A stretch of DNA of 64,000 bases from a virus (taxonomy: Duplodnaviria; Caudoviricetes), in the IMG/VR virus record IMGVR_UViG_3300021185_003040, positions 59,788 through 123,787 of that record, one strand, 5' to 3'. Positions 3,010-41,237 of this stretch are shown piece by piece. The notes below the pieces were generated by a model. It searched no databases. It had not been told where the DNA came from and saw only the letters and a program-made list of their open reading frames with translations. Within the stretch, counting starts at the first letter, position 1. Each line of letters opens with the position of its first letter. Both the position numbers and the translations under genes were made by a program.

Positions 3010-3327
3010 TTAATATTCAAATGGTGGAGTTCCATAATCACCTTGTTCGATGCCATACCATACTCCTGATACTTGTAAATACCACCATCCATATTTAGTG
3101 TCGTCTACTACTTTAAATTTCTTAGGTAATTTAACAGATTTTTTTGGAGCTCTAGCAATATACTTTAAAACTGGAACACCATCATCCCATGTTTTTTTAG
3201 TAGATCTTGCTTGAACTGATTGTCCATCTGAAAACGCATCAAATGCTTTTGCATCTTCTATTTCATCTGCTAATAAATCGATAGCTGATTCATTAATGTA
3301 TTGTTCAAATAATTTTACTTTTTTCAT
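3010..3327 (-). CDS. Putative internal head protein
   Basis: N-terminus MKKVKLFEQYINE|S resembles the T4 capsid-targeting sequence MKTYQEFIAE. Confidence 0.6.
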   Translation of the reverse strand: MKKVKLFEQYINESAIDLLADEIEDAKAFDAFSDGQSVQARSTKKTWDDGVPVLKYIARAPKKSVKLPKKFKVVDDTKYGWWYLQVSGVWYGIEQGDYGTPPFEY

Positions 3328-4697: not shown

Positions 4698-7600
4698 TTA
4701 ATGTAAGGAATCATGTGCTAATTCATTAGCTAAGTCTGGATTATCATCTGTGAAATCTGATAATTCTTCGTCAGTCATTTCTTTTCCATTAGAATATTCA
4801 CCATAACTAAAGAATGCATCTGTGAAATCTGGATAATCTTTCATATCAACATCTTCCATTTCTAATGAACTAATATCTACTTTCTTTCCTTTAAATTTAA
4901 TATAATTAGCTTCGTTAATAAAAGATTCTAATGTTAAACTAACAACTGGTTTAATTCCAGTTAATATTCTTTTTCCAAATTTAGAAAGACCAATTCCATT
5001 TTCACTTACTGTAAAGTATTTAGAATTTCTTCTCATCCATCTTTTATTATCGATTGATTTTTCTTTTAGAATATTATTGAATTCTTCTTCTGTTAATACA
5101 CCATCCGCTAATGCCTCGATCATTGCGTTTCTGACTTTAGCAGTTCTACCTGAAGTTTGTGCAGGATGATTATCGGTATATCTTCTTTTTATTTGAATTT
5201 TAGATTCTCTAAGACCCGGTTTCATTACGTTTAATTCCCACCACTGTTCTAATTGGTGATAAATATTTGCACCCATGTTTGAAATCATGAAGTCAATTAC
5301 ATCATCATAATTGTCTTTTTCATCTTGATAAAAACCAGGAGTATCGATATATTCTTTACCCATTATCTTTCTAACTGCTCTTTCTGGCATAGCATCGATT
5401 TCTTTTAAAAATTCTTCGAAATCTTCATCGTTTTTAAAACCCTTAGCTTCAATAACCATTGATTCCATTAGGCCAATAGCAATCTCTCCAACTTCTCTAT
5501 CGCCGCCGTCAACATATCTTTTGTTAAGTATTGCAAATTTAAAACCATCTGCTTTTATCGTATACATTGGCATCATACTATCACTATAGTCGTATTTGTA
5601 TTTACCTGCTTTTAATTCTTTACCGATTGCAAAGAAATCTTTAGCTTTACCTACTAAATCTGCAAGATTATCTAAGTGGTCACCAGCGTCGTCCTTTTCA
5701 TTAACTAATGATTCATAAACTCCTTTTTCAATGTTCTTGATTAAGAGTTTAGCACCCTTCTTGTCAAGTTCATTTTGAATAAAGTCCATCATTTCGTTGG
5801 GATCTTCAGCATCTATACCAAATTCAGATGCTAAGTTTTGATATGCATCAAATTCCATATTAGAAATAGTGTCTTCTAAGTCTGCATACACATCTTCATT
5901 AACTGCTGATTCTACCATTACTAGCCCTATATCCTTATATGCTATTTCATGCTCTCCACCGTCTTGATCTAGTGCAAATACTGATTTATCATGCCACATT
6001 GCAGCATTGTCATCGTTATTAGAATCAGGATTATAAATGATATATTCTTTTCCGTTTCCGGTTTGAATCATTGCATCATCTGCATCTCCTAATTTTTTTA
6101 ATAATGACTTTTTAGTATACCTTTCTTCAACAGCTTCACCTGACGTATATTCAAAATCATTATATAGTGCCTTTAACCATTCTAAAAACTCTGGAGTTTT
6201 CTTCATTACTTTCTTATGTCCGTATTCTTTAAAGAATTCTTTCTGAAAAGTATCAAATGATTTGTGATTACCTATCATTTGGTGAATGTCAGACATAACA
6301 CCCTCACTGATAACTAATTTTACATCTTTGTTTTTACCAGCTACTGCATCATCTAGTTCATTTGTAAGAGCTTTCTTTTTTGCTGTTAAATCTATTAGCT
6401 GCTGTCTAGTTGCTGCTTTCTCATCACTTCCATCTTCCGCAGCGATGTATATCTTTACAATATCTTTCATCTTATTAACTGTTTCTCCAAATTCCTTTGA
6501 AATCTTGTTAATAGATCTAGCTTCTAATATATTAGATTCTTCAATGTATTCTCCTAATTCAGGATCGTCCCATCCATTAGGATCGGCTAATACCGATTGT
6601 AAATCTTCTCTTGAACCTGTCATTTCAACTTCTGGCCAATTGCCACCAGGGCCGTTCATTGTTAAAACTTTCATTTTAACATTATATTTCTTTAAAAGCT
6701 TTTTGAGTGTTTTTGATTTAGGATCTATTGCATCCATTACTACAGTAGCTTCATTTAAATTTTCGTCTAGCTTATCAAAGAATCCACCATGTTCACTTTG
6801 TAAATCTTCACCATACTTGTCGTCCCATATTTTAGCTAATTCATCTTTAGTAATTTTACCTTTATATTTTCCCATGATTTCAACATAGACACTACCATAT
6901 TCATATTCAAAATCTTCACCATAAGAAAAATCCCATGCCTTTTCAACATCTTTAATTGTAAGCTTTTTGGCTTCAGTAACCTTTGATTCATACCATCCGT
7001 TTTCGTAATCGTCATCATCTTCATAATCATCATACTCAGGTTCTTGATACCATGATTGATTTGGATCAGATTCTGCTTCTTCAGTAAAGTCATGTCTTTT
7101 CCAATTAAATCTTGGATCTTCAACTAATGCAGGGAATAATGTCTTTTTCTTTTTATCTTTGGTCTTTATTTTACCGAATGCTAAATCAATACCAAGTTGT
7201 CTTAATTCTTTAAATGAACCTTTCATTGTTTTAACATCTTCTTCAGTATATCCATTCATTGTAGCAACAAGATCATAATAATCCATTCCACCAAATTCAC
7301 CATATCCTTCATAATCCTTTTCCGTCCACTTGTTACCCATATTATCATACATAAATACTGTAATCATGTTCTGTCTTTCAGAACCTATTTGTGTGTTTGT
7401 ATCGGATGTAAGCCATGAAAATTGACCTTCAACTATCATCTGTTCATGTAACAATTGAGCACCAGTCGTTACAATGTTTAAATAGCTTTCAGGAATTCCA
7501 TTTACAAAGTTATGTAATTCTGGTTCGAAATCTGGCATACCACATGCATATCTTGGATATGTTGCTCCTTCTGTATTTACAAGAATACTCATTCCATAAT

Positions 7601-7916
7601 ACTCTCCAAGCTCACCTGATTCAGTGTTACAATATAATACAAATACCTGTGGCACTTGAACTTTAAAGTTAGATTGTAATGGATATTCGTTATGACATCC
7701 TAATTCTTTAGTAGTGTATACGTCTAAGGAATGTAATTCTTTATCATATTTAGTTAATTCTCTATATGGAATAGAAGCTCTTTGGTTAAATAGATCTCCC
7801 CAATAAGAAGGCTTTCTCAAGGAATATTTCCCAGAAACCTTTTTGTATACTTTATATAAATCAACGTTTTCGTTCATTGAATTTACAAAGCTTTCGAATG
7901 TTTTTTTAGTGCTCAT
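4698..7916 (-). CDS. Putative multi-module internal head polyprotein
   Basis: 1072 aa; leader MSTKKTFESFVNSMNE; about 12 recurring (ES)xx[NT/hydrophobic]E junctions. Confidence 0.6.
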   Translation of the reverse strand: MSTKKTFESFVNSMNENVDLYKVYKKVSGKYSLRKPSYWGDLFNQRASIPYRELTKYDKELHSLDVYTTKELGCHNEYPLQSNFKVQVPQVFVLYCNTESGELGEYYGMSILVNTEGATYPRYACGMPDFEPELHNFVNGIPESYLNIVTTGAQLLHEQMIVEGQFSWLTSDTNTQIGSERQNMITVFMYDNMGNKWTEKDYEGYGEFGGMDYYDLVATMNGYTEEDVKTMKGSFKELRQLGIDLAFGKIKTKDKKKKTLFPALVEDPRFNWKRHDFTEEAESDPNQSWYQEPEYDDYEDDDDYENGWYESKVTEAKKLTIKDVEKAWDFSYGEDFEYEYGSVYVEIMGKYKGKITKDELAKIWDDKYGEDLQSEHGGFFDKLDENLNEATVVMDAIDPKSKTLKKLLKKYNVKMKVLTMNGPGGNWPEVEMTGSREDLQSVLADPNGWDDPELGEYIEESNILEARSINKISKEFGETVNKMKDIVKIYIAAEDGSDEKAATRQQLIDLTAKKKALTNELDDAVAGKNKDVKLVISEGVMSDIHQMIGNHKSFDTFQKEFFKEYGHKKVMKKTPEFLEWLKALYNDFEYTSGEAVEERYTKKSLLKKLGDADDAMIQTGNGKEYIIYNPDSNNDDNAAMWHDKSVFALDQDGGEHEIAYKDIGLVMVESAVNEDVYADLEDTISNMEFDAYQNLASEFGIDAEDPNEMMDFIQNELDKKGAKLLIKNIEKGVYESLVNEKDDAGDHLDNLADLVGKAKDFFAIGKELKAGKYKYDYSDSMMPMYTIKADGFKFAILNKRYVDGGDREVGEIAIGLMESMVIEAKGFKNDEDFEEFLKEIDAMPERAVRKIMGKEYIDTPGFYQDEKDNYDDVIDFMISNMGANIYHQLEQWWELNVMKPGLRESKIQIKRRYTDNHPAQTSGRTAKVRNAMIEALADGVLTEEEFNNILKEKSIDNKRWMRRNSKYFTVSENGIGLSKFGKRILTGIKPVVSLTLESFINEANYIKFKGKKVDISSLEMEDVDMKDYPDFTDAFFSYGEYSNGKEMTDEELSDFTDDNPDLANELAHDSLH

Positions 7917-7936: not shown

Positions 7937-9016
7937 TTAAACTCGGTTAGGCTTTATTTTATATTTAAATTTACCTTGTGTAATAGAATATATTTGTAAT
8001 TTGCTAGTTTTTCCAGGTAATTTCTTGTAATAGTGAAAAGCTACTATTTCATGATCTTTAGACTCTATAAAAAGGAATGGAGTAGGTATATCTCCTACTG
8101 CTGAAATTACATCGTCTTGTATTTCAGTAAATGTTCTAACGGAAGGCTCAGTCTCTATTATACTTTTAATTTTTTCTGCAGTTTTAGAGTCACTTAGCTT
8201 TCCTAATTCTACGTCATTAAATTTAATTACTAATGCGCCGTTATCTTTATCTCCAGGACCTATTTTAAAATCTCTTTCACTAGAAGAAAGGGCCTGAATA
8301 TCTGTCTTAGTTAAATTTTGAATATGCTTAAATCTTTTTCCACCTACAGTTCCCCATTCATTTATCCAACCTCCACCGGCAGCCATATCTTTACCATCTC
8401 CGTCCGGGTTGATTTCTTCAATATTATATTTTACTGCGTCATATAATGCCGTTAACTTCGGTACATAAGTACTATTAATTCCCTGGTGTTTTGCACCTGT
8501 TCTCCAATTTTGTAACATGCCCTTTGACATTTGAGCTTCTTTTAACTCACATTTACCAAGGGGTGGTTTAATTGGTGACCACCTTTCATTATATAATTCT
8601 AAGTCAGTATCGGCCGCACCTCCACCTATTTTTATATTTTCTACAATATACGCTAGCATTATTTCTCCAGCACCAATTCCATTATCGTCTCTTCCAATAT
8701 TAAACAATTCGTTTGCTTCGCTTTTATTTAACATTAAATATTGAAAAACTACTCCGAATGTATCGTCATCCATTTTAGAAAGCCATAACCTACCATCAGG
8801 TTGTTGTTTAACATCCTGTGTTGAAGTAAACTTAACACCTTGCCATGGACACTTATTCTTTTTAAATGTTCTATTAATTGAATTAAATAAATTCTGTTGG
8901 GCAGCCTTACTGCCGGTTGATGCAACTCCAATATAGGATTCTATAATTAATGCTTCATTTTCAGCATTGGTTTTTGCAGCACTATGTAGTGCTCTTTCAA
9001 AATCGTACCTATCCAT
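7937..9016 (-). CDS. Putative PD-(D/E)xK-fold nuclease
   Basis: GxGE...D.DL...ELK arrangement (GAGEIML, DTDLEL, CELKE) resembles a restriction-endonuclease-like active site. Confidence 0.45.
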   Translation of the reverse strand: MDRYDFERALHSAAKTNAENEALIIESYIGVASTGSKAAQQNLFNSINRTFKKNKCPWQGVKFTSTQDVKQQPDGRLWLSKMDDDTFGVVFQYLMLNKSEANELFNIGRDDNGIGAGEIMLAYIVENIKIGGGAADTDLELYNERWSPIKPPLGKCELKEAQMSKGMLQNWRTGAKHQGINSTYVPKLTALYDAVKYNIEEINPDGDGKDMAAGGGWINEWGTVGGKRFKHIQNLTKTDIQALSSSERDFKIGPGDKDNGALVIKFNDVELGKLSDSKTAEKIKSIIETEPSVRTFTEIQDDVISAVGDIPTPFLFIESKDHEIVAFHYYKKLPGKTSKLQIYSITQGKFKYKIKPNRV

Positions 9017-10880
9017 TGTTTTCTAAAAATTGTTTAAATGTTAATAATGATTCAGTGACTTCATTTGATTCTGAAGCACCTACTGAATCTTCTAATTTTT
9101 TCTTAAGTTCACCATACATTTTATGTAAGGCCTTTGGTGTTGTAGACTTAAATAGTTTTTCATCTCCGTCTAACATTGCATTTCTAACCTGAGTCGCTGA
9201 AATATTATTGTCTGTTCTTGGAATTTCAAATAATCCAAAATCACTCCTAACTCCAAGATCTTCTCTATAAGAATCTTTATTTACTTGGAATCCGTAAGTT
9301 TTCATTCTATCGCTTCCTGTTCCCCATAATACGGGTTCATAAGTTGGTCTCATTGCATTGAACATTGTATCAATACCTCCGGTTGGAATTACAAAGATTT
9401 CTTTTAAGAATGGATATTGTTTTTGAACCGCCTTAAACATATCTAATTGTGTCTTCTCATCATAAGGTCTTTTAAATGCATCTTCCTTTTTCTTATTCTT
9501 TGCTTTTACTAATAAAACAACCACAGGATATCCATTTTCTTTGTGTATAGTTTCTAATACTTTAGCATGTCCAAGTGTAAATGGTTGGAATCTACCAACA
9601 AACATATTTACTAATTCTCCTCCTTGTTCAGGATGATCTACTTTAAGTGCTTCATTTAAATTAACACTTGTCTTTACTTTATTATGTAATATGAAATTAT
9701 TAAAGTCGTATATGGAATTTTCATCGGTATTCTCTACAAATACTTTCTTATCTATAGTTTCTACTATTTGATTTAAATGCTCTAACATTTCTGCATTTAT
9801 GATATCGCTTTCCTTGCTTCTCTTTTTTCTAAAAGAACCTAAAGTTATTTTAAATAATTCTGCAAGTATTTCGTTTTCAACATAAGAAAGAGTGGTCTCG
9901 TTCTTAATGTATTTAGTATTTAGTTTAAAGGAATCTGAATCTGCAAAATCAGCTGATTCAAAGTTAACACCAATAAACTTAGCAGAGTGTTCTTTAACAT
10001 ACGTATTAAACATCACTGACATTAATTCAATATATCTCCAGTCTGCTGTTTCTTCATTTAGTTGAATGTCTTTCATTTCAAATGTAGAAATAAATTCAAT
10101 AAGACCAGCAATAGTAATTTGATACATGTGGCTTGATCTCTTATTTTCACTAACAGTTCTTGTAAAATCTTCTAATTTAAAAGATCTAGATTTTTTCTCA
10201 TCAATAAAAGAAACTATTAATCCGTCAATTTCTACTTCAAAGTCTTCATTTAACGTAGGAGAAATTGCATTTGGATTAAATGTCTTAATCATCTTTTGGG
10301 TAAAAGGTAATCTTGCATCTGTATTTGGATCATAATCAAATGCTTCAGAAAACTCCTTATCTGACATAGATAGAACAGTTATTAATTCTTCTTTTTGCAT
10401 TTGAGATAACATACCATCAAATACAATGCTAGGTCCTTGAACCTCTAATATCTTTGACCATTTATTTAATATAACTGGATCGCTAATTGTTTTTTTAATC
10501 TTACCTGATTCATTCATAGTTTGAATGTGAGTAAGTATTAAATTGTTTTTAGGCAGTTTAGTATATTTATATTCTGACACGTTTAATTCAGGTAAATATT
10601 CAAAACCAAATTTCCAATCATGTGGCATTTGTTCCTTTATACTAGGATCTAGACTTTGGATGTGCTTGACACCTGTTTCATATAAACCTACTATTGTTCT
10701 GTCTATCATGTTCATTCTAGAATCTCCAGATTTGTAATATTCAAATTTAGTCTGGTTTCTTCTAACGTGAAATGAAGCTCCTTGTATTTTTTCAGTTACT
10801 AGAACCCTGCTATTCAACATATCTTGAAATGCATTGATATTAGTTTCCTGAAATACTTGTCTTAGTTTTTTAAGTGCCAT
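9009..10880 (-). CDS. Fusion of an ATP-dependent-ligase-like N-terminal domain and a HIGH-family nucleotidyltransferase (NadM/NMNAT/cytidylyltransferase-like)
   Basis: N-terminal TEKIQG, FGFEY, DGLIV, FKL (ligase motifs I/III/IV/V-like); C-terminal GRFQPFTLGH, GSDR and ISATQVR. Confidence 0.7.
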   Translation of the reverse strand: MALKKLRQVFQETNINAFQDMLNSRVLVTEKIQGASFHVRRNQTKFEYYKSGDSRMNMIDRTIVGLYETGVKHIQSLDPSIKEQMPHDWKFGFEYLPELNVSEYKYTKLPKNNLILTHIQTMNESGKIKKTISDPVILNKWSKILEVQGPSIVFDGMLSQMQKEELITVLSMSDKEFSEAFDYDPNTDARLPFTQKMIKTFNPNAISPTLNEDFEVEIDGLIVSFIDEKKSRSFKLEDFTRTVSENKRSSHMYQITIAGLIEFISTFEMKDIQLNEETADWRYIELMSVMFNTYVKEHSAKFIGVNFESADFADSDSFKLNTKYIKNETTLSYVENEILAELFKITLGSFRKKRSKESDIINAEMLEHLNQIVETIDKKVFVENTDENSIYDFNNFILHNKVKTSVNLNEALKVDHPEQGGELVNMFVGRFQPFTLGHAKVLETIHKENGYPVVVLLVKAKNKKKEDAFKRPYDEKTQLDMFKAVQKQYPFLKEIFVIPTGGIDTMFNAMRPTYEPVLWGTGSDRMKTYGFQVNKDSYREDLGVRSDFGLFEIPRTDNNISATQVRNAMLDGDEKLFKSTTPKALHKMYGELKKKLEDSVGASESNEVTESLLTFKQFLENNG

Positions 10881-10890
10881 ATTATATTAT

Positions 10891-12261
10891 TTATCTTCCG
10901 TACTTTATGATTCCCATCAGCTGATTGATAGCAGCAAAAGTACCTGTTAGTTTCATAGTCTTTCCTTTATATACAAAAACTATTCCTTCAGTTGGTATGA
11001 TAGATTCTACTCCTCCAATTCTATCTAATCTCTCTAGTTCTTTCATTACCTTTTCGATCTGAGTAACGCTTCCATCTTTTTTGATCTTTTCAGATTCTGA
11101 TCTAATTTGATTATGTAGTCTTTGCATCTCTTTGTCTGGATTTGCAGCTACAAAATTAGAAGCATTCATAAGAATTATAGACCCTAGTTCTAAAAATAAA
11201 TCTTCAAACGGTCTAATGTTTTCTTTATATTTCTTTTTAACATCTTCTTTGTCAAATTTCTTAACAGAAGCAGCTTCATCTTTTCCTATCTCCTTTGCAA
11301 GTGATCTCATATTTAAAGACTTTTTATCTCCATAAGCCCATCTTAATAATAAACCTTCCTTATAGTCTTGTTGTAAATCGGGGAAATTTGCATCTATTGT
11401 TTCTCTCCACCACATTTCATGATATCTAGAAACTTCGTCACCGTCTGTTAAGTTATAACGATCTCTTAATTTTTCAATCTGCTTTATAAATTTAGCTTGA
11501 TTTTTATCAAAATTAATATCTTTACCTAGTTTTAAAATCTGAGGAGGAATTATTGTAAATGTCTTTTGAACATCGGCATCTACTTCCTTTAAAGCTTTGA
11601 CTAATTCTCCTGCTATTTTTCTAGATCCTGTAATATTACCATTCCCATCAGTTTCTTGAATATCGTGAAATTGAAGAACATCTCTTTCGTAATAGATTAC
11701 ATTTGGGTTTTTAGAATAGATTAATTCTATATTTATAAAATCTTTACCGTCATTAAATATGGACTGATCTTTAATTTTTGGAAGAGCTTCATTTAGATCT
11801 TTAGCTGCAAACACGTATGTTTCTCGCACTAAAGGTACCTCATGCTTTTCAAACATTTCTATAATACCGTCTAAATCAACGGGACTAATTAATTGACCTT
11901 TATTTCTAGAAAACATCGTAACTCCGTTTTTTACGGTTGCTAATAGATTTTGACCGTCTGTTTTTTCAGTGGCTACCTCTTCAAAGTTTAATTCTCCTTG
12001 AAGACCAGACGTTACGATCTTTTTAAAATCTGCGAATGTTAAATCTTTTTCATCGAAAGGATGAGACATGTGACCAGCTGCACCGCCTTCTAAGATTAAT
12101 TCTTCTTTAAGTGTATTGTATTTTTCAACGATATATTCATCAAATGATAAAACTTTACTCTTATTTTCACTCATATAATGTGCAACATATTCCTCTCTGG
12201 TCATGCCATGTGCATCTGCGTGATGTTGAATAAAATCTACGAAGTTGTTATTTAGTTCCAT
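10891..12261 (-). CDS. ATP-dependent ligase-like nucleotidyltransferase (conserved T4-like phage family, possibly DUF6267-related)
   Basis: LILE|GGAAGHMSHPFD, TEKTDGQN (KxDG), EGIVF and KLTG. Confidence 0.6.
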   Translation of the reverse strand: MELNNNFVDFIQHHADAHGMTREEYVAHYMSENKSKVLSFDEYIVEKYNTLKEELILEGGAAGHMSHPFDEKDLTFADFKKIVTSGLQGELNFEEVATEKTDGQNLLATVKNGVTMFSRNKGQLISPVDLDGIIEMFEKHEVPLVRETYVFAAKDLNEALPKIKDQSIFNDGKDFINIELIYSKNPNVIYYERDVLQFHDIQETDGNGNITGSRKIAGELVKALKEVDADVQKTFTIIPPQILKLGKDINFDKNQAKFIKQIEKLRDRYNLTDGDEVSRYHEMWWRETIDANFPDLQQDYKEGLLLRWAYGDKKSLNMRSLAKEIGKDEAASVKKFDKEDVKKKYKENIRPFEDLFLELGSIILMNASNFVAANPDKEMQRLHNQIRSESEKIKKDGSVTQIEKVMKELERLDRIGGVESIIPTEGIVFVYKGKTMKLTGTFAAINQLMGIIKYGR

Positions 12262-12280
12262 GTATATAGCTAATATAATT

Positions 12281-12314
12281 AAAAAACTTGACCCGGAAAA
12301 ATCCAGGTCAGTTT
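12281..12314 (-). terminator. Intrinsic terminator
   Basis: Minus strand AAACTGACCTGGA-TTTT-TCCGGGTCAAG followed by T6. Confidence 0.8.
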
Positions 12315-12328
12315 ATTTTTATTTTTTA

Positions 12329-14455
12329 TTATAAATATCTATCGATAAATTCTTCTTTGCTACCAACAAATGATCTAGTCTTTGGGCCAAAAAGAACAAT
12401 TTCAGCACCTTTTGATTTAAGCCAATCTGCGACTTTTTGAGCTTTTTTCTTATCAGCTGATAACCATACTGTGTCAAATTCAGAACCGTGAGACCTTTGC
12501 ATTACAATACCTCCTTTTTCATTTGTAAATTTAAACTTATCTCCAAGAGCAACACTTACTTTAATATTTTTATCAAAATTCTTTTTATGATTCTTAAAAG
12601 AATATGCTAAAGCACCTGAGTAACTTTTAGTGTCAGTTGTAAATTCATCTAAAGATGTAGTAGTACCTTCATAAATATTTGATTCAAATGCTGGAACTAA
12701 TCCAGTTTCTCCGTAGATATCTGCCATCATCCATTTTTTAGAACCTTCATCCCATAAATAAACGAATTCTGCACCACCTTCGTAATTTGCATCTTTAATA
12801 TATTTGTTAATATTCTTAACATTACCTTTCATCAGATTAACATCTCCGCCATAGAAATTAATTTTCTTAACGTCTTTATCTAAACCTGAATTATCTCCAT
12901 TTTTAAGAACAAAATCTACATTTTTACCACTTTTAAAGGTTGATTTAATAATAGGCAACATGTTTTCAGGATATGAATCATAGTGAGTATATACTGAAGT
13001 AATATTTCCTTTCTTGTCTATTTTACCAAATTGACCTCTAGTTCCTTCATTAATTACATAATTGATTACTTCGTTAAATTTAGATTCTTTTAAAGAAATT
13101 TCTTCTTCAGTTAATTGAAACTTAACTGATTCTTCTACTGCGTTAAATCCTGCTAATAATTTTTCAGCAAGTTTAGATTCACCAATAGATTCTAAATATA
13201 GAGCAGTGCCTTCAGCAACTCCAATACCTGACCATCCGGCAGCATTTGAAATTCTAGAATAATACTCATCTAATATCTGTGATATTTTCTTTGCTCCTAC
13301 TATAATAGCTTGTTTACCAAGAGTTAAAGGATTAACAGTAACACTTCCTAATCTTCCTTTGATAATTTTTTCAGTAGCTGTTCTTTCTCTATGGAAATTA
13401 GCATCAGTTAATGCTTCAGCATAAATATATTTAATAGCTCCTAAGTGAGAAATTTTATCAGCTGTTAAGCTTCCTAGTTCTGCAAATATTTTATTGTATT
13501 GAGTTAATACTTTCTTTGCATCTCTTTTATATTTAATATCTAAGGCCTCATTCATTAATGATTCTCCTAATCCCCAGTAATTTGCGTAATCGTATTCAAC
13601 TGGGAATATACCTAAATCACCTTCATCACCTTCTTCACTTTTAACAATTTTAGCAAGATAGTAATCTCCCTTTGCAGTATCTTCATATCCGTATGAATCT
13701 GCATCTGATCCCATTTCTTTTTTAAATTGTTTTGATATCTTTCTCCAATTATCGATAGCGATTATTTCAACTTCACTTCCAATTGAATTTTCAGTAGTAT
13801 CTCCTACTTTAAATTTAGCTTTTTCAGTAACTAAAGATTCTGAAAATTCTTCAATATGTTCCATATCGATTTCATCTTCTCCCTTTAATTCTTTTTGTAC
13901 TTCTTTAGACTTTACTAATTTTGAAAGATCTTTCATAGTGATTTCTCCATCAATGAAGTCAGCTAGTATATAGTATTGATTAGCAGAAAGTCCTTCACTG
14001 TCTCTAAAATCACCAATTTCTTCAATTGCTGCTTTAGTAACGGTCTTAGCTTCAGTAATCACTGATTCGCTTAATGAATTTCTTAGACCACAGTGTACGC
14101 ATTCTACCGTTCCGTCCTTGTCAATTTGCTTATATAAATGTCCTTTTTTATTAGTACATTTTGGTTCGTCTGATTCAGTAACTTCTTCTGATGCAGTAAC
14201 CTCTTCTACCTCTACTTCTATTTCAGCGATTTCTTCTTCTGAAACATCTCCAAATATTTTTGAGATAATTGATTCTTTCTGATCTTCTTCTAAACCTTCG
14301 AAAGAAGTTAATCCTAATTCATCTAGAATAGCAGCTATTTTACCAACTGATTCTTGTCTTTTTAAATTGTTTTCTTCTCTAAGTTTACTAACAGATTCCT
14401 GTTTTCTAATCTCTGTAAACGATTTAAATGAAGAAATTTTATTAACTTTTGCCAT
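12329..14455 (-). CDS. Putative multi-module internal head polyprotein
   Basis: 708 aa; leader MAKVNKISSFKSFTE; junctions SESVITE|A, SESLVTE|K, GESLMNE|A, YVINE|G and FESNIYE|G. Confidence 0.6.
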   Translation of the reverse strand: MAKVNKISSFKSFTEIRKQESVSKLREENNLKRQESVGKIAAILDELGLTSFEGLEEDQKESIISKIFGDVSEEEIAEIEVEVEEVTASEEVTESDEPKCTNKKGHLYKQIDKDGTVECVHCGLRNSLSESVITEAKTVTKAAIEEIGDFRDSEGLSANQYYILADFIDGEITMKDLSKLVKSKEVQKELKGEDEIDMEHIEEFSESLVTEKAKFKVGDTTENSIGSEVEIIAIDNWRKISKQFKKEMGSDADSYGYEDTAKGDYYLAKIVKSEEGDEGDLGIFPVEYDYANYWGLGESLMNEALDIKYKRDAKKVLTQYNKIFAELGSLTADKISHLGAIKYIYAEALTDANFHRERTATEKIIKGRLGSVTVNPLTLGKQAIIVGAKKISQILDEYYSRISNAAGWSGIGVAEGTALYLESIGESKLAEKLLAGFNAVEESVKFQLTEEEISLKESKFNEVINYVINEGTRGQFGKIDKKGNITSVYTHYDSYPENMLPIIKSTFKSGKNVDFVLKNGDNSGLDKDVKKINFYGGDVNLMKGNVKNINKYIKDANYEGGAEFVYLWDEGSKKWMMADIYGETGLVPAFESNIYEGTTTSLDEFTTDTKSYSGALAYSFKNHKKNFDKNIKVSVALGDKFKFTNEKGGIVMQRSHGSEFDTVWLSADKKKAQKVADWLKSKGAEIVLFGPKTRSFVGSKEEFIDRYL

Positions 14456-14487
14456 TTTTAATGTTTATTTAATTTAGTTTCGTTATT

Positions 14488-15996
14488 CTATATATCTCCG
14501 TCAAATTTGACTTTCTTAATACTATACTCAAATTTCTCTTGTTTATAAATTTTTTGTCTAGCTTTACTGTGTTTGTATAGGTAATTGTCCCATTCGTCGG
14601 TTCTAATGTCATCTACAAAATCGATAATTAATACAGCTTCTTTAGACTCATGCTGCCTTAGACCTCTACCAATTGACTGCCTGATGATCACCTCGGACTT
14701 AAATGACTCTGTAAAGAATATATTGTGTATTTTCTTAATGGAAATTCCAGTAGAAAATGTACCATAACTAGCTACAATAACTACTTCATCTCCTGCTTCC
14801 ATTTTCTTCTTATATTCTTCTCTAATATCTTTATCAGTTCCTCCATCTACATAAAAAACTCTTTTATCTGAGTTTTGGCGAAGTTGTTCGTATATTTTTT
14901 TACCATGTTCTATCCTATGAAACAGAACCAGAGAGTTTCTAGGAACCTTGCCAACGACATTACATATAAAATTAAGTCTACCAAAAGAATTAATAATGTA
15001 ATTTTGTTCTAGTTGAAAAACATCCTTCCTATCATACTTATTAAATGCTAATTCTTCAAATGCCTTTTTGGCGGAATCAGGTGCGTAATTCATTTCAATT
15101 ACCTTTACTTTACATTTAGCGATGTGACCCTGGCTCTGTAAAAATGCAGCCTTAACTTCGCTAATTACAGGACCCGTTTGACTCATTAGTGTTAACTTGT
15201 CTAAAGATCCATCTTTGGGAATTGTACCCGATAAACCATACTTATATTTTGCGTTAGTGCATTTTTGTAATATAGTCTTAATAGAATTAGATTTCGCCTT
15301 ATGGGTTTCATCTACGATAACAGCGTCGAACTGTTGAAAGTATTCTTTGGGCTTTTTAACTAGGGATTGATATGTACCTATTACTACATTCCGGTCTGAC
15401 TTTATTTTCTGACCAGCATATATTTGTTGTATCTTTAGTTTTATTCTATTCTTATTATTGTATTCGTGGAAATCTTCATGAGCCTGTACAACTAAAGAAA
15501 CATTAGGAACTATAAATAGTATTTTCTCTGCTCTTTCTTTTTCTAACATATAAGCTACTGTTAAAAAGCTAATAAGTGTTTTTCCAGCAGACGTTGCTAA
15601 TTCAGCTAAACATCTCCTAAACTTTAGGATATTAAATGCAGTTTCTATTTGATAATCCCTTGGAACAAATTTGCTACCCTCAAAAAATTCTAAAGCCCAT
15701 GCTTCAAATGATTCGGCTCCTATGTTTCTATCAAATAGTCTTTGAATTCCATTAAGTTTAAGATCAAACTTATATTCCTTGCAAATAAGCATAACGTATC
15801 GCCAAAGACCAGCGGGAATCCACTTATCGTCTTTGATATATGAAACATATCCGTCCCATATTCCTTTCTTGACTAAAGGATTAAATCTCCAACTATCAAT
15901 TCTTTTAGTTAAAGATATTTTAATCTGCTCTAGTTCAAGTTCCTCTGCTTCATCAATTCGTAAGAATTGATTATCATCCGTTAGAGTTAAAATCAA
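14488..15996 (-). CDS. uvsW: UvsW-like SF2 DNA helicase
   Basis: WDG N-terminal motif, PRDYQ, ATSAGKT, DETH, GLSGT, FSTGISI and QSIGRGLR. Confidence 0.92.
   Translation of the reverse strand: MILTLTDDNQFLRIDEAEELELEQIKISLTKRIDSWRFNPLVKKGIWDGYVSYIKDDKWIPAGLWRYVMLICKEYKFDLKLNGIQRLFDRNIGAESFEAWALEFFEGSKFVPRDYQIETAFNILKFRRCLAELATSAGKTLISFLTVAYMLEKERAEKILFIVPNVSLVVQAHEDFHEYNNKNRIKLKIQQIYAGQKIKSDRNVVIGTYQSLVKKPKEYFQQFDAVIVDETHKAKSNSIKTILQKCTNAKYKYGLSGTIPKDGSLDKLTLMSQTGPVISEVKAAFLQSQGHIAKCKVKVIEMNYAPDSAKKAFEELAFNKYDRKDVFQLEQNYIINSFGRLNFICNVVGKVPRNSLVLFHRIEHGKKIYEQLRQNSDKRVFYVDGGTDKDIREEYKKKMEAGDEVVIVASYGTFSTGISIKKIHNIFFTESFKSEVIIRQSIGRGLRQHESKEAVLIIDFVDDIRTDEWDNYLYKHSKARQKIYKQEKFEYSIKKVKFDGDI
14489..14496 (-). 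promoter_or_regulatory. Class-2 promoter GATATATA
   Basis: Motif overlaps the uvsW 3' end, upstream of the 708-aa gene. Confidence 0.6.
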
Positions 15997-16013
15997 TTTT
16001 CATTTAACTTTTT

Positions 16014-16448
16014 TTACAGTCTCGAAATATCAAGGCGATTCTTTATTGCAAAGCCCATATTGTCGAGAGTTTTTACTGAGCCTTCAATAAAGGCCTTTTG
16101 GCTTTCAAGTAAATCCAAAATTTGCTTATCGTCTGAAAGATCTGCATCAATAAAACGTTCTCTTTGTTTATCTGTTATCTTATAATCAAACTTATAATAT
16201 TCAATCCATTTTTGTTTATATAACTTGTCTACTGTTCCTTTCTGCGTTCTAATTTTACCACCAATGGTTGCTAAATTTTCAACTAATATTTGCCTATAAC
16301 TTAATGTGTATGCGCTAACATCTTCTAGGTTAATACCTTCTTTTAAGTTTTCAGTAAGTTCTTTAATCTTTAAAGTCCATTCTGATCTTTGTTTTGCTAA
16401 ATATTCGTCTAATTGTACAATCTTAGATTTGTTTGATTGTTCTGCCAT
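16014..16448 (-). CDS. uvsY: UvsY-like recombination mediator
   Basis: 144-aa helical protein beside uvsW; KWIEYY...FIDAD...KTLDNMGFAIKN resembles the UvsY C-terminus. Confidence 0.7.
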   Translation of the reverse strand: MAEQSNKSKIVQLDEYLAKQRSEWTLKIKELTENLKEGINLEDVSAYTLSYRQILVENLATIGGKIRTQKGTVDKLYKQKWIEYYKFDYKITDKQRERFIDADLSDDKQILDLLESQKAFIEGSVKTLDNMGFAIKNRLDISRL

Positions 16449-16459
16449 GTGGTGTTTTT

Positions 16460-16672
16460 TTAGAATAATGAGTTGTTATTAGTATTCTTCTTAATATAAA
16501 CTTGACTCTTAAATTTTTTCTTATATTTAGGAGTTATTTTAATTTCTTTTTCATCATGTGATAAATCAGCGGCTGCAAACCCAATAATCATTTTTAGATT
16601 TTTGTGTCTTTTTCCATCTTCTTCGAATTGATCTAATTCGTCGTTTACCATTTGTACGTAATCGTCTATCAT
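16460..16672 (-). CDS. Hypothetical protein
   Basis: 70-aa ORF overlapping the primase stop. Confidence 0.6.
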   Translation of the reverse strand: MIDDYVQMVNDELDQFEEDGKRHKNLKMIIGFAAADLSHDEKEIKITPKYKKKFKSQVYIKKNTNNNSLF

Positions 16673-17751
16673 AAGTAATAAGCATCTAGTCGTGAATTAC
16701 TAAAATACTTATCCATTGTAGATAAACATTTATTTTTTGTTTTCCAAGCAGCGATAACTAGATCGTTTAGATCTTTAATCTTGCTAGGATATTTATCCAT
16801 CTTAGATTCAGAAAGAAATTTGTCCCATGTAAATACTTCTTTACCTCTTTTTAATTTTTGCATCATCTTTGATTTTCCTGCTTCGTCGTTATCAAACATA
16901 TATCGTATTGTTGGAATTTCGTCTAATTCTTCAGTTGATCTAGTTACAGACGCCAATGCTATAGAGTTAGGCATAAATAAGGCATCTAAGGGTCCTTCGA
17001 ATACCGTACAAGGCATTTGGAAGTTTGCAGTCATGATACCAAACAAAGTTGATAGCTTCTTAGAGGATATAAGCTGTTCATCCTGAAGAGGTATTTCTTT
17101 ATTCATTTCCTGATATATCTTTTCTATATCGTATGTTAAATATCTTGTGTTTTTACTTTTTCTTAAAGATCTACTTTGAAATCCTATAACTTTACCTTCA
17201 GGTGCTAAGTTTAAAACTAAGATTCTTTTATCTTTGGGAGAATATAAGAAGTGATTAAGTTTCTTATGTAAAAACCTGTTCTTTAAATAGAAAAAGGCAG
17301 GATCGCCTGGTTCTATTTCTACAAGTTTAAAAACTTCTTTAAGTTCCTTTCTTGTAGGTGATAAATCATATAAAGTTTTAAATACACCATGTTGTAGAGT
17401 GTCTACTTCATTAACAGATACCTTGTGTTCTTTAATATATTCTATAATTGTAATAGAATCTTGAGTATCTTGGAATTTTAGGTGATGATCTTTTAGAAAA
17501 CCATATAGATCTGAGTGTTGTCCACAATTAAAGCAGTGGAATTGTAACGTTGCCCAATATAGATTACCTCTTTTCTTATGAGTTTCACCATGTGAGTCAC
17601 CACAATAAGGGCATGCCAGGTTTAAACGACCTGGCATTTCCTTAATCATGTGTTTGTTAGGGTCAGTATGTTCTTTTACACAAACTTGTTTAACTAAACT
17701 TCTGACCTTCTGCTTTAAATCTTCTGTGATTTTTTTAGATTCCGATTTCAT
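16669..17751 (-). CDS. DNA primase (T4 gp61-like)
   Basis: Zinc finger CPYCGDS...HCFNC; TOPRIM motifs EGPLDALF and FDND. Confidence 0.9.
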   Translation of the reverse strand: MKSESKKITEDLKQKVRSLVKQVCVKEHTDPNKHMIKEMPGRLNLACPYCGDSHGETHKKRGNLYWATLQFHCFNCGQHSDLYGFLKDHHLKFQDTQDSITIIEYIKEHKVSVNEVDTLQHGVFKTLYDLSPTRKELKEVFKLVEIEPGDPAFFYLKNRFLHKKLNHFLYSPKDKRILVLNLAPEGKVIGFQSRSLRKSKNTRYLTYDIEKIYQEMNKEIPLQDEQLISSKKLSTLFGIMTANFQMPCTVFEGPLDALFMPNSIALASVTRSTEELDEIPTIRYMFDNDEAGKSKMMQKLKRGKEVFTWDKFLSESKMDKYPSKIKDLNDLVIAAWKTKNKCLSTMDKYFSNSRLDAYYL

Positions 17752-18691
17752 CTAAGAAAGAATCTAGATCATCGCTATCTGCTGATGCAGTTGAAGATTT
17801 TGTTTCTGCTGCCGTTGGAGTCGCTGTCATTGTGTCAGGGAATTCAAAGTTAGCATCATTTCCTGTTACCGGAGCTGCTTCTTTTACTGCTGCTTTTTTA
17901 GCAGCTGGTTTCGGTGTAGAAATTACAGAATCCATTGAAGAACCAGGGTTAAGATATTGTCTTAAAATACCATTGACAAAGTCAAGAGTTTCAGCATCCC
18001 ATTTCTTATATCCATAAGGATCTAAAGATGGTGCTGTATCTAATTCACCTTTAATAGATGTCATAGCTTCTTGGTTTCTTTCAGCTGGTTTTCCATCAAT
18101 TGCAATAGCTGATCTAGTTGCAGAGAATTTAGACTTATCATAGTTATTATATTCACCTTGGCGAGTAATAATAAGTTCAAAGTTCTTTCCTTCGAATAAA
18201 TCATAAATCTGAGTTGGTTCACCAAATGCAGGTTTAGTTTCTTCTTCGATCTTCTCTTTAATTTTGTAACCGAATTTAAATACTTTATAAGTACCTTCTA
18301 ATTCAGGGTTCTGAGGATCTTTCACTACTTTAATAAGTGAGTAATACTGTTCTCTACGCTTAAGCTTGTCGCTCATCTTACGGTCTACTGCTGAATCACT
18401 CTTACGAAGTTTGAAGAATGCATCTGCAATTGGACACTTATCTCCTACCGTTGAAGGTGAATCAATAAGTCTTCCATCGCCGTTAGCGTCAGTTAGCCAG
18501 TGTACATACTTTTTAACTAATGAATTTCTTGGGTTTGTTGGGTTTGGAACAAAACGAATAAGTGCTTTGTAAGTTCCGTCTTTACCATCGTCTGCTGATG
18601 GTTTGTAGATCTCATTTGTAGAGCTTGAGCTCTTTGTTTCATGAGTTTCAACGTCTGATACGCTGAGGTTAAAAATGTCAAAATCTGCCAT
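17735..18691 (-). CDS. Single-stranded DNA-binding protein (T4 gp32-like)
   Basis: ALIRFVP, CPI, FKFGYKI, YDLFEGKNF, NYDKSKF, and an acidic tail DDLDSFLDEI. Confidence 0.9.
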   Translation of the reverse strand: MADFDIFNLSVSDVETHETKSSSSTNEIYKPSADDGKDGTYKALIRFVPNPTNPRNSLVKKYVHWLTDANGDGRLIDSPSTVGDKCPIADAFFKLRKSDSAVDRKMSDKLKRREQYYSLIKVVKDPQNPELEGTYKVFKFGYKIKEKIEEETKPAFGEPTQIYDLFEGKNFELIITRQGEYNNYDKSKFSATRSAIAIDGKPAERNQEAMTSIKGELDTAPSLDPYGYKKWDAETLDFVNGILRQYLNPGSSMDSVISTPKPAAKKAAVKEAAPVTGNDANFEFPDTMTATPTAAETKSSTASADSDDLDSFLDEIGI

Positions 18692-18747
18692 GTCTTTAAT
18701 TGCTTTAATTTACGTTAATGTCTTTAATCTTTAAAAAACTTTCAATA

Positions 18748-18774
18748 GTTATACATGTAATTCCTAAAAGGTTT
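18748..18774 (-). promoter_or_regulatory. Class-1 promoter AAAC-N17-TATAAC
   Basis: Conserved motif and spacing upstream of the SSB gene; a class-2 motif also lies at 18792-18799. Confidence 0.7.
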
Positions 18775-18824
18775 CACAATAATAACTATTCTATATATCC
18801 GTATCGCAGGGGGCAGGGGAAGAA

Positions 18825-19016
18825 TTATAGCTCTGTGTAAGTTGCACCAGATTCGTCAATCCACTTTGAAGAAGAGTTTGGAAGACGAGCTAAACCAGCC
18901 TTTCTTAACATATCTATCATTTCATTTTCTGTTATTCTATGTTGAGTTACCATATCACTTAAAATCTCTTTAAGCTTTAATAGGTGTGCCGGTATTATTT
19001 CTTTATCTGTTTGCAT
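18825..19016 (-). CDS. Hypothetical protein
   Basis: 63-aa ORF with a class-2 motif at 19022-19029. Confidence 0.6.
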   Translation of the reverse strand: MQTDKEIIPAHLLKLKEILSDMVTQHRITENEMIDMLRKAGLARLPNSSSKWIDESGATYTEL

Positions 19017-19097
19017 ATTTTTATATATCTTTTTATTTTATGAAACTTTATGGGGAAAAGACAGTATAACTTAAGACTTTAAGCCTCAGTGGTAAAT

Positions 19098-19793
19098 CTA
19101 TTCCTCAGTGGCCGACATCTTTGCTCTAACGAAGTGAGTTAAAAAGTAAGCGTCAACTAAATCGTCAAAGGGTTTTGGTATTTTTTTCGAAGGTCCAATT
19201 TCTTTCACACAAAAATCTAAAAGAGGATGTTCTGCTAAGACTTGATCTTCTAATACATTACCTAAAAAGGCATCCCATAATTGAGACTTATTCATGTTTC
19301 CTTTTCCAGCGTGTTTCTTAATTGTAGTAGGAGCAATGGTTTGAATGTCTAGGATTTCAAGTTGACTTAGCATTCTTTCTTTAAGTATTGCAGCTCCTGC
19401 AGCCATATCTATAATATTATTAGTTCCCATTTTCGAACCGAAAGAAGTTCCTTCAAAAGAAATAATATATTGCTTCTTTGTTTTTGTAATATCCGTTATT
19501 AAATTAATAATGTCATCTGCTGTTTTAGCGTATCTCTTTATCTTTGCTAATTCAACGCTTGAATAATCTGCACCATGTTTTCCCCAGTCGGGTTGATTAA
19601 TAAGAGTAACTCCCTTCAAATGAGATATGTCTTCTTGCCAAGCTCTTTCTTTCTTGGTTCCTTGGCCTTCTTTAATATAAGATATGAAATGATATTCGTT
19701 AGTTTCTTCTTGGTATATAAAAATACCTGGAGAGTTTAATGAAAAGTCTACTGATACGTAATTCAAATTAGAATGATTTTCCGATAGCAGCAC
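19098..19793 (-). CDS. RuvC-like Holliday junction resolvase / RNase H-fold nuclease
   Basis: VDFSLNSPG, FEG, PTTIKK..GKGN.NK and DDLVDAYF. Confidence 0.8.
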   Translation of the reverse strand: MLLSENHSNLNYVSVDFSLNSPGIFIYQEETNEYHFISYIKEGQGTKKERAWQEDISHLKGVTLINQPDWGKHGADYSSVELAKIKRYAKTADDIINLITDITKTKKQYIISFEGTSFGSKMGTNNIIDMAAGAAILKERMLSQLEILDIQTIAPTTIKKHAGKGNMNKSQLWDAFLGNVLEDQVLAEHPLLDFCVKEIGPSKKIPKPFDDLVDAYFLTHFVRAKMSATEE

Positions 19794-20136
19794 CTAATCC
19801 AGCGCCAACTAATCTTGAGGTTAATAAATCGTAAAAAATACCTTTTTGAATTCCTAAAACTTTAGCAACTGTTTTACCAATTGTTTTACCTAAAGCAAAT
19901 CCTGTAAGGCCACCAAATATAGAACCTAAGAAACCTTCATTTGTTAATTCCTCATTAAATCTTTCAAAATCAAACGTTCCATCTTCATTTGCGTACTGTC
20001 TAGTAAATTCTTCTAATGCCGCATCAACCTTTTGCTCTAATTCGTCAGTCCATTCTGACTGTAGAGATTCTTCTAATAGAGTAATTTCCTCTTTAGTTAT
20101 ATTCTCTTCGCTTAAGTATTCAAAAAATGTTTTCAT
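19768..20136 (-). CDS. Leader-tagged protein with a glycine-zipper, membrane-active C-terminus
   Basis: MKTFFEYLSEE leader, acidic N-half, then NE|GFLGSIFGGLTGFALG...GAGLGAAIG. Confidence 0.6.
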   Translation of the reverse strand: MKTFFEYLSEENITKEEITLLEESLQSEWTDELEQKVDAALEEFTRQYANEDGTFDFERFNEELTNEGFLGSIFGGLTGFALGKTIGKTVAKVLGIQKGIFYDLLTSRLVGAGLGAAIGKSF

Positions 20137-20173
20137 TATAATTGTCTATATTGTTATGGATTATATATCTCTT

Positions 20174-20731
20174 TTATTTATTATCTATTTCAGGAGTTAT
20201 ATTGAACTTGTTGTAATAAAAATTAAGGGTGAATGTAGAAAACTCCGCGACATTACTTGACATATTTAATTCCAACTCTGATATTGAATTAAGAATAGGT
20301 TTTTCGAAAACTGCACTCATTAAATGTATACCCTCAGAATCCATTATTTGAAGTTTAAGATCGTTAATAAACGGGTCTCTAACCTGTTTTGAATAATAAT
20401 ATAATAGAGTATCTTGCATTATAAAATAATTAACATATCCATCTAATAACTGAAGCTCTATAGAAAATTGTCTTTCAATAGTATTCTGTATAGGAATAGA
20501 TCCTCTGTGATATGTAATAGTTCCATCGTTAGGAGATTGTGATATTGGATCAAAATTAATCCCTGGCATACTTAAACCCTGTATTGAATAATTGATAAAA
20601 TCAATAGGTTCTTCTAGAATATTTCCCGGAATTCTATTCAAATAAGGTCTGTATTTATCAGCTACTTCCTTTGGAATAAAGGTCCTAGGGAACTTAAAGT
20701 TAAATAAGTTATTTCTACTATTTAATATCAT
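20174..20731 (-). CDS. Tail completion / tube-terminator protein (T4 gp3-like)
   Basis: QGLSMPGI and LLDGYVNY pattern of the gp3/tube fold; tail-module context. Confidence 0.55.
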   Translation of the reverse strand: MILNSRNNLFNFKFPRTFIPKEVADKYRPYLNRIPGNILEEPIDFINYSIQGLSMPGINFDPISQSPNDGTITYHRGSIPIQNTIERQFSIELQLLDGYVNYFIMQDTLLYYYSKQVRDPFINDLKLQIMDSEGIHLMSAVFEKPILNSISELELNMSSNVAEFSTFTLNFYYNKFNITPEIDNK

Positions 20732-22788: not shown

Positions 22789-22803
22789 TGTTTATTTATT
22801 ATT

Positions 22804-23625: not shown

Positions 23626-23641
23626 ATATTAAATCTAAATT

Positions 23642-26701: not shown

Positions 26702-26745
26702 TACTTAAATCTTTATTTATTTAGTATATATCTTAATTTATTTCT

Positions 26746-29922: not shown

Positions 29923-29924
29923 TA

Positions 29925-40647: not shown

Positions 40648-40669
40648 CTAATTAATTGTTTATTTTTAA

Positions 40670-41236: not shown

Positions 41237-41237
41237 T

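Follow-up and report, generated by a model that had tools for sequence, protein, structure and literature searches.

The internal proteins of phage T4 are the classic phage proteins that are injected together with the DNA and act against host defences, and they occur as single genes in a few coliphages. Polyproteins, in which one translation product carries protease sites at its domain borders and supplies its parts at fixed stoichiometry from one promoter, are familiar from RNA viruses and retroviruses, where they comprise essential proteins of replication and structure in a fixed order. Here, we describe a 708-amino-acid (aa) open reading frame (ORF) on the minus strand of a 64,000-nucleotide stretch of viral DNA (the window), which forms the final 64 kb of the 123,787-bp record IMGVR_UViG_3300021185_003040 (CheckV completeness ~44%). 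Its product is a chain of mutually dissimilar modules, each ending in the same short junction, and, in contrast to those viral polyproteins, strains differ in which modules they carry and in what order. The cassette architecture is established at the level of the sequence, and what is new here is a variant of the T4 internal-protein theme, in which a putative multi-module precursor takes the place of single genes.

The closest comparison is with T4 IPI, IPII, IPIII and Alt, whose N-terminal leader, like some leaders in the family of this ORF, is described as carrying two aromatic residues and ending in aliphatic-x-Glu, and whose phage, like this one, encodes an S77 prohead protease. The T4 internal proteins, given as ~8, 10 and 20 kDa, compare with predicted products of ~5-18 kDa here, and, like the modules here, they are reported to be poorly conserved between related phages (PMC9026906, PMC8442874). 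They are described as separate genes with a single cut by the leader (PMC8442874), whereas here up to eight pieces would share one leader and one promoter; moreover, unlike in T4, the junction is an extended E-S-V-V-T/N-E, the modules are mostly acidic rather than basic, and no sequence similarity to T4 proteins was detected. The head-packaged ejection and inner-body proteins of phiKZ, 201phi2-1 and SPN3US are likewise cut C-terminal to the Glu of a three-residue motif, sometimes at multiple sites per chain, but the motif in these giant phages is A/S/G-x-E, the extra sites lie in discarded propeptides, and the portions of the source available to us describe no array of interchangeable, unrelated modules (PMC5694885). 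The polyvalent proteins (Iyer et al. 2017, PMC5512222) similarly combine many domains per polypeptide in variable architectures, with predicted host entry alongside the DNA and a role in conflict, and the seven to eight modules counted here lie within the 2 to 15 domains of variable architecture by which they are recognised. Polyvalent proteins, however, are described as carrying recognised conflict domains (ART, ParB-like, MuF, PBECR) and often an embedded metallopeptidase, to which their processing is ascribed (PMC5512222); Pfam and PDB searches found no such domains in the ORF, and the modules here are tiny, each being bounded by a site that fits a separate prohead protease. The literature searched, which covers subscription journals and supplementary files incompletely, contained no account of a polyprotein of this kind.

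The strings on which an initial annotation of this DNA had built its picture of a second polyprotein, from the ORF and its leader to five junctions and a C/H unit, are all present as quoted. The leader string KISSFKSFTE occupies aa 6-15, and the junctions, with a slash at the proposed cut, are SESVITE/A (129-135/136), SESLVTE/K (205-211/212), GESLMNE/A (297-303/304), YVINE/G (466-470/471) and FESNIYE/G (590-596/597); the strings CTNKKGH...CVHC and KFKVGD...VEII lie at aa 100-123 and aa 214-232, respectively. An extra junction absent from that annotation, EEVTE/S at aa 94/95, makes the C/H unit a 41-aa module of its own, and two further motif matches, ESKLAE (aa 426-431) and ESKFNE (aa 457-462), are located in the tail of module 4. 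The division of the ORF is given below, with the occurrence of the parts among 264 retrieved relatives, which were compared with six query pieces (M1 to M6) cut at the five junctions of the initial annotation:

12329..14455, minus strand: polyprotein ORF, ATG start, 708 aa, 79.2 kDa, isoelectric point (pI) 5.05, stop codon included
14411..14455, minus strand: leader, aa 1-15 (MAKVNKISSFKSFTE), containing F-x-x-F and closing with F-T-E
14174..14410, minus strand: head domain M1a, aa 16-94, two helices and then an acidic tail to EEVTE/S, pI 4.3, net charge -14
14051..14173, minus strand: C/H mini-module, aa 95-135, 41 aa, C-x5-H-x13-C-x2-C, ending in SESVITE
13823..14050, minus strand: module 2, aa 136-211, 76 aa, pI 4.4, ending in SESLVTE; in 19/264 relatives
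13547..13822, minus strand: module 3, aa 212-303, 92 aa, pI 4.4, ending in GESLMNE; in 66/264 relatives
13163..13546, minus strand: module 4 core, aa 304-431, helical, with a confident model; in 185/264 relatives
13046..13162, minus strand: spacer, aa 432-470, containing ESKFNE and the junction YVINE, of low model confidence at aa 442-471
12668..13045, minus strand: module 5, aa 471-596, 126 aa, G-T-R-G-Q right after the junction; in 197/264 relatives
12332..12667, minus strand: module 6, aa 597-708, 112 aa, pI 9.5; in 36/264 relatives, C-terminal in all

The motif E-S-x-[ILVMFY]-x-E occurs six times in the ORF against a shuffle mean of 0.22, and none of 20,000 residue shuffles reached six. 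Of the window's 47 minus-strand ORFs with a length of 100 aa or more, six copies are found here and six in the ORF at 4698-7916, with one each in two others and none in the remaining 43.

4698..7916, minus strand: sister polyprotein, 1072 aa, leader MSTKKTFESFVNSMNE, six copies of the same junction motif (0/20,000 shuffles reach six)

Segments of this sister ORF recur in the relatives of the 708-aa ORF (B1 in 61/264, B2 in 39/264, B5 in 25/264; identity up to 93%), and, judged by these matches, the two ORFs draw on a common module pool. The proposal that the 708-aa ORF is an independent instance of the same cassette design is thus borne out, both by the motif that the two ORFs have in common and by the recurrence of its modules in relatives. 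A search pattern that fixes P6, P5 and P1 beforehand collected 413 distinct junction contexts, in which P3 is V in 75%, I in 16% and L in 5% (together 96%), P2 is T in 46% and N in 35% (together 81%), and P1' is A in 50%, G in 17% and S in 10% (together 77%). The serine at P5 is encoded by TCN in 48/48 distinct junction contexts, compared with 660/807 of the other serine codons in the same 20 coding sequences, a bias that is suggestive of a constraint at the DNA level or of common descent, the junctions not being independent of one another.

Relatives were collected by a word-seeded search, which gave 646 at E <= 1e-3 among 7,999 candidates scored (120 of them listed), and by an exhaustive search of 1.84 billion cluster representatives, which gave 296 at E <= 1e-3. 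Where a match reaches the first residue of a module, the upstream neighbour is different from that of the query in 151 cases and the same in 37 for module 5, with corresponding counts of 108 and 40 for module 4, 48 and 4 for module 3 (53 matches reach its start), 8 and 8 for module 2, and 13 and 21 for module 6. Directly before the module, triplets of the form [ILVM]-x-E are the commonest, being found in 168/193 cases for module 5, 138/150 for module 4, 35/35 for module 6 and 17/17 for module 2. The M1 piece is present in 165/264 proteins; the head piece is N-terminal in 137/137 matches that reach its start, and internal in no relative. Close relatives carry other modules in place of module 2 (for example P0005 and P0027) or have extra modules inserted, and in distant relatives the order of modules is changed, P0054 for example reading M5-M4-M3-C/H unit. 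The comparison of orthologues that had been suggested as a check therefore revealed swaps, insertions and reordering, with the variability placed exactly at the junctions. When 1,100 segments delimited by junctions were roughly clustered, they fell into 145 families, 35 of which occur in at least 3 of the 264 proteins, some families being lumped by the single linkage used. Raw BLAST ends fall within 2 aa of a strict junction in 950/4,706 cases, compared with 166/4,706 random positions; these breakpoint statistics are noisy because alignments continue through the conserved junctions, and the count per module is the cleaner measure. A repeat protein was ruled out as an explanation, as the modules are mutually dissimilar (best pairwise E 0.29) and the junction is their only common stretch.

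The same turnover is visible in the DNA of 39 related loci taken from viral contigs. In L016, the DNA is 94.5-98.5% identical over the UvsW-like helicase gene and M1-M5, and 86.8% identical from M6 through the downstream gene; within the ORF alone, the aligned 90-nt bins are 94-100% identical. This locus has two exact in-frame insertions, of 204 and 186 nt, each consisting of one module plus one junction, and the ends of the insertions are ambiguous over TGAA and GAATCAGA. In L025, L027, L024 and L036, blocks of DNA homology end at junctions or within 11 residues of them (aa 84-97, 136, 303-309, 459-470 and 582-598), the exceptions being two breaks within M4 (aa 358 and 422), and in L036 the blocks follow each other in a changed order. 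Contig variants from RNA libraries diverge from the window at 13824 and 14177, which is 1 to 3 nt from the M2/M3 border and from the border between the head domain and the C/H unit. The position of the gene is constant across the related loci, between UvsW (71-100% identical) and a gene for a 456-aa protein, and its content is variable. With one short junction at the end of every module, recombination in the DNA that encodes the junctions could add, remove or reorder entire modules without harm to targeting or processing, and the locus would therefore act as a hypervariable cargo slot between conserved genes.

A single fold over the full length is ruled out by the structure model, in line with the modular reading of the initial annotation. 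An AlphaFold2 model of the whole chain, for which the query was aligned to 63 of the 264 relatives that are collinear with it, has a mean predicted local distance difference test score (pLDDT) of 61.9 and a predicted template modelling score (pTM) of 0.30, and consists of separate domains. All five junctions of the initial annotation lie in segments with pLDDT <50 (123-136, 203-227, 287-309, 442-471 and 591-615), and the confident regions are M4 (10-residue block means of 75-94 over aa 311-440) and M5. Modelled alone, on an alignment that included 12 of the 197 proteins related to it, for the most part short or stand-alone genes, M5 reaches a pLDDT of 90.1 and a pTM of 0.86, its final four residues, which form the junction, being disordered.

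The modules had been called recognisable and captured, and the searches support neither point. Homology and structure searches gave no match in Pfam (E <= 1), by PDB sequence or by PDB fold (E <= 0.001). Pfam found nothing at E <= 1 on the whole 708-aa protein, a peptidase domain included; Foldseek against the PDB returned nothing at E <= 0.001 for the full model (best 1wd6_B, E 0.27) or for the M5 model (best E 0.22, template modelling score by query 0.30), and PDB sequence and profile searches gave nothing significant, whether the query was M5, M4 or the entire chain. HigB-2 (E 0.4) and tau (E 0.026), which appeared in the PDB sequence searches, were taken as chance. Against BFVD, the full model has two Foldseek matches at E <= 0.001, both of them uncharacterised phage proteins. 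As to capture, all relatives of the 708-aa ORF that were seen come from viral or metagenomic sequence, and when module 5 was used to scan prokaryotic genomes, one for each species, none of the 210 pattern matches was a relative. Neither the ORF (by tblastn) nor window positions 10000-30000 (by megablast) matched the phage collection, an Atlas search with module 5 returned unnamed viral clusters only, and the clusters to which P0034 and P0104 belong carry no informative names; Prok-E2_D, the nearest named Atlas cluster for module 5 (score 0.76), was taken as chance.

For the C/H mini-module, described earlier as zinc-ribbon-like, it is the conservation of the four putative ligands that supports the call. 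There are 72 units in 72/264 proteins, all 19 sequence variants retain the C, H, C and C, and in P0061 and P0098 the unit is flanked by two junctions. Its model has short strands at 108-111, 116-119 and 125-127 with pLDDT <50, and it matches no family; the conservation of the ligands is compatible with a zinc knuckle or ribbon. Module 3, which had been likened to an SH3/KOW domain, is modelled at moderate confidence (block-mean pLDDT of 57-70 in the folded part) as beta-alpha-alpha-beta-beta (strand 228-236, helices 237-248 and 252-255, strands 264-272 and 281-285) and not as a five-stranded barrel, with no Pfam or PDB match. Module 5, the most widespread module, provides the only PHROGs match of the ORF, to phrog_1987 (E 3.9e-10), a family of unknown function. 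Its T-H-Y-D-S-Y-P stretch is nearly invariant, and the module is also found in a separate protein family of L039, L040 and L042 (N-terminus MDKSHFNQDDRVDEGK).

The genome that carries this ORF also encodes a candidate for the processing enzyme. It has a match to Peptidase_S77 (PF03420) of 41.7 bits, above the cut-off of 27, whereas 0/14 control genomes match. The match lies within a 682-aa protease-scaffold ORF (phrog_207, E 2.2e-38) that is flanked by the portal and major head protein genes:

own genome 32705-34753 (L003:13705-15753), minus strand: prohead protease fused to a scaffold-like tail, with five Y-x-x-Y-L/V-A-E repeats and TEEVEE runs
own genome 31122-32549, minus strand: major head protein, with the start ...IIESATGINE/AEKL, a candidate short propeptide

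A further match of the 682-aa ORF is to 5jbl_A, a chain of the T4 prohead protease (E 0.0078), and in the alignment a His and a Ser of the query stand opposite Ala in the crystallised chain, at positions that we take to be the catalytic ones. T4 gp21 is reported to cleave after L/I-x-E and was first found to do so at a Glu-Ala bond (PMC9026906). In the 10-residue T4 capsid-targeting sequence (PMC8442874), residues 4 and 7 are assigned to targeting and residues 8 and 10 to processing, and an Asp at position 10 is described as blocking processing and leaving targeting intact (PMC9026906).

Leaders of related form are widespread in this family. F-x-x-F-[STA]-[EDQ] occurs within the first 20 aa of 155/263 Met-started relatives, and the exact T4 spacing, [FYW]-x-x-[FYW]-[ILVM]-x-E, is found in 11/263 of them, including stand-alone genes for M4, M5 and M6, as well as in 6/120 ORFs of the phage's own genome. 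In the stand-alone genes, the module follows right after such a T4-spaced leader (M5 in P0212, P0183 and P0228; M6 in P0197, where the leader is MKNIPTFEDFVNE; M4 in P0208), stand-alone forms of module 4 with leaders resembling the capsid-targeting sequence (CTS) being those of P0208 and P0230. Within the M5 alignment, 10/11 rows that contain the module start begin with G-T-R directly after x-x-E, and one begins with S-T-R. Leaders of the T4 capsid-targeting type are also seen on the minus-strand window ORFs 3010-3327, 3329-4663, 19768-20136, 60746-61648, 61704-62186 and 62521-63060, and on own-genome ORFs 39990-41327 and 29571-31001. Examples of leaders from such ORFs, several of which lie behind the promoter-like box discussed next, are MKKVKLFEQYINE and MKLYTNFDNFINE; no PHROG or Pfam function was found for them, except that a 445-aa ORF matches phrog_1250, itself of unknown function.

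The promoter and terminator attributed to the gene in the initial annotation are present as a promoter-like box and a hairpin, and both are conserved in relatives:

14489..14496, minus strand: promoter-like box GATATATA, 41 nt upstream of the ATG and overlapping the final codons of the UvsW-like helicase gene
12279..12310 (hairpin 12310..12289), minus strand: intrinsic-terminator-like hairpin plus T run, nine pairs (five G-C), loop of four, 19 nt past the stop codon

In the phage's own genome, there are 21 copies of the box on the coding strand but two on the opposite one, and 16 ORF starts have the box no more than 70 nt upstream, the window sites including 4695, 14496, 20169, 26732, 34802, 48802 and 50245. 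The genes behind it encode tail sheath, tail tube, protease-scaffold, small-terminase-like and fibre-like proteins as well as CTS-leader ORFs. It is found at -41 to -49 in 32/39 related loci, many of them near-identical and together representing about nine divergent lineages; the seven loci without it comprise two that lack the ORF start, three with a different M5-bearing protein and two marginal matches of 22 residues. By analogy with the late promoters of T4, from whose consensus it differs, the box is a candidate late promoter, and a 199-aa ORF at own-genome 2813-3412 (minus strand; L002:2813-3412), which matches the phage sigma factor family phrog_1740 (E 3e-15), is a candidate for the corresponding late sigma factor. 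The hairpin is conserved in the related loci, the altered stems of L024 and L034 still pairing; in L027-L032, a small extra gene (start MKKVIEFIKKA) replaces it between the polyprotein gene and the 456-aa gene.

The stretch is contained in 16 runs filed as RNA (at least 0.7 of sampled words). A 2,434-nt contig from one of them spans 12034-14467, and a contig from another ends at 14459, so that both end just downstream of the box, which we take as no more than a weak hint. A depth dip over the helicase gene is not interpretable from contigs. One contig of low depth (2.8) in RNA run X1 joins 12769 to 14236 through 23 other letters, and it could be a variant without most of the modules or an assembly chimera.

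The wider setting is that of a marine T4-like myovirus. The window has a G+C content of ~32%, and 84 of its 86 ORFs of at least 150 aa are on the minus strand. Replication genes (a UvsW-like helicase, a primase and a gp32-type single-stranded DNA-binding protein) and tail genes (baseplate wedge and hub, fibre-like giants, tail sheath and tail tube) are present, and the head module has the order portal, 122-aa ORF, 682-aa protease-scaffold ORF and major head protein. In the phage collection, the records that come closest belong to uncultured huge phages; in LR756500.1, UvsW is 56% and the major head protein 52% identical. The 456-aa downstream neighbour (10891-12261, minus strand) has no family match, and its E-K-T-D-G stretch bears a resemblance to ligase motif I. 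The window copy starts with MELNNNFVDFIQH; in L036 (~6150 onward) and L037 (~5540 onward), the ORF directly downstream of the polyprotein gene, at the place where the homolog of the 456-aa gene aligns, starts with a capsid-targeting-like leader (MKIFTNFNEFMTE and MKIYTNFTEFLNE, respectively). Beyond it, at 9009-10880 (minus strand), a 623-aa ORF resembles cytidylyltransferases in its C-terminal third (PF01467, E 8.4e-9), and its first 370 aa are without assignment.

We consider it fairly probable that the 708-aa ORF encodes a late-expressed, capsid-targeted precursor of internal head proteins that is cut by a gp21-type protease. The leader and the helical and acidic head domain (aa 1-94) would direct the entire chain to the prohead's scaffolding core, M1a being proposed as the targeting or propeptide part. 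A gp21-type (Peptidase_S77) protease would then cleave after the Glu of each junction, at the consensus hydrophobic-x-E-S-V-V-T/N-E / A/G/S, to yield about eight pieces, six of which would be folded or metal-binding modules of 4.6-18 kDa. The modules would remain packaged and, like T4 IPI-III and Alt, be delivered into the host along with the DNA, where they would likely serve in counter-defence or host takeover. Several observations weigh against this proposal. Targeting, cleavage, retention, ejection and function are what we infer rather than observe. The gene lies among replication genes, and the pI of most modules is in the acidic to neutral range (4.3-7.0), the T4 internal proteins being described as highly basic (PMC8442874). 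In the leader's own F-K-S-F-T-E, the aromatics are at P6 and P3 rather than at P7 and P4 as in T4, and the last leader position is D or Q in at least 32/137 relatives, so that cutting of the leader itself is not conserved. The E-S at P6-P5 lies outside the published gp21 motif and is also absent from the candidate sites in the phage's own scaffold and major head protein, which would allow for a different protease or a structural role; since the record is only ~44% complete, the genome may contain further proteases. Finally, the RNA contigs continue through the terminator into the next gene, and, with this read-through and possible DNA carry-over, they give presence and not timing.

Some of these points would equally suit an uncleaved multidomain protein of the beads-on-a-string kind, virion-associated or not, in which the E-S-V-V-T-E stretches serve as structural linkers or docking strands: conservation at P6-P4 exceeds the published L/I-x-E motif, cleavage is not directly observed, and the N4 virion RNA polymerase and some polyvalent proteins are described as being delivered unprocessed (PMC5512222). 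We regard this as unlikely, given that an invariant Glu with Ala, Gly or Ser after it is more than a structural linker would call for, that the junctions offer what a gp21-type protease requires, namely Glu at P1, an aliphatic residue at P3 and a small one at P1', that the leaders of the stand-alone genes end in the same x-x-E right before the first residue of the module, and that the order and number of the modules are free. The location within the replication cluster, the acidic modules that set the protein apart from the T4 internal proteins, and the incomplete genome with its room for further proteases can also be read in favour of a genuine polyprotein whose processing takes place outside the capsid, through a protease of the host or a second one of the phage, and yields equimolar late accessory proteins that are not packaged. 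This is rather improbable in our estimate, as it leaves aside a conserved leader and head domain that are always N-terminal, the T4-spaced capsid-targeting-like leaders on stand-alone relatives, and a promoter-like box common to virion genes, and as the prohead protease is the only protease found. The acidic composition resembles that of the phage's own scaffold tail as well, and the core proteins of T4 are reported to be cut at many L/I-x-E sites, with the fragments leaving the head (PMC9026906), which invites comparison with an assembly protein of the scaffold or core type, like T4 gp22, gp67 and gp68, whose modules would be assembly aids expelled as fragments at head maturation. Such a scaffold would be expected to be conserved and intolerant of reordering, whereas the modules are folded, mutually unrelated domains that differ between near-identical strains in which the neighbouring core genes are conserved, and we hold this explanation to be very improbable.

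Beyond the precursor of internal head proteins that we favour for this ORF, we put forward, tentatively and with more doubt than conviction, that marine T4-like phages possess a protein-level cassette system, in which a constant head and a universal junction accept any small effector, the junction serves both as protease site and as DNA microhomology, and dozens of families are shuffled among at least two loci and stand-alone genes to give a strain-specific injected arsenal, most likely directed against defences and including at least one domain of confident fold that lacks a structural neighbour in the PDB. If the precursor reading holds, abundant marine phages chain many cargo proteins behind one targeting signal and swap them as cassettes, and the design suggests a natural route for loading a capsid with multiple proteins at fixed stoichiometry. 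The conserved junction provides a simple sequence handle for candidate injected effectors in metagenomes, and the ~35 module families found in at least 3 of the 264 proteins, none of them with a known function, are effector candidates; the proteins injected by uncultured marine phages become directly testable.

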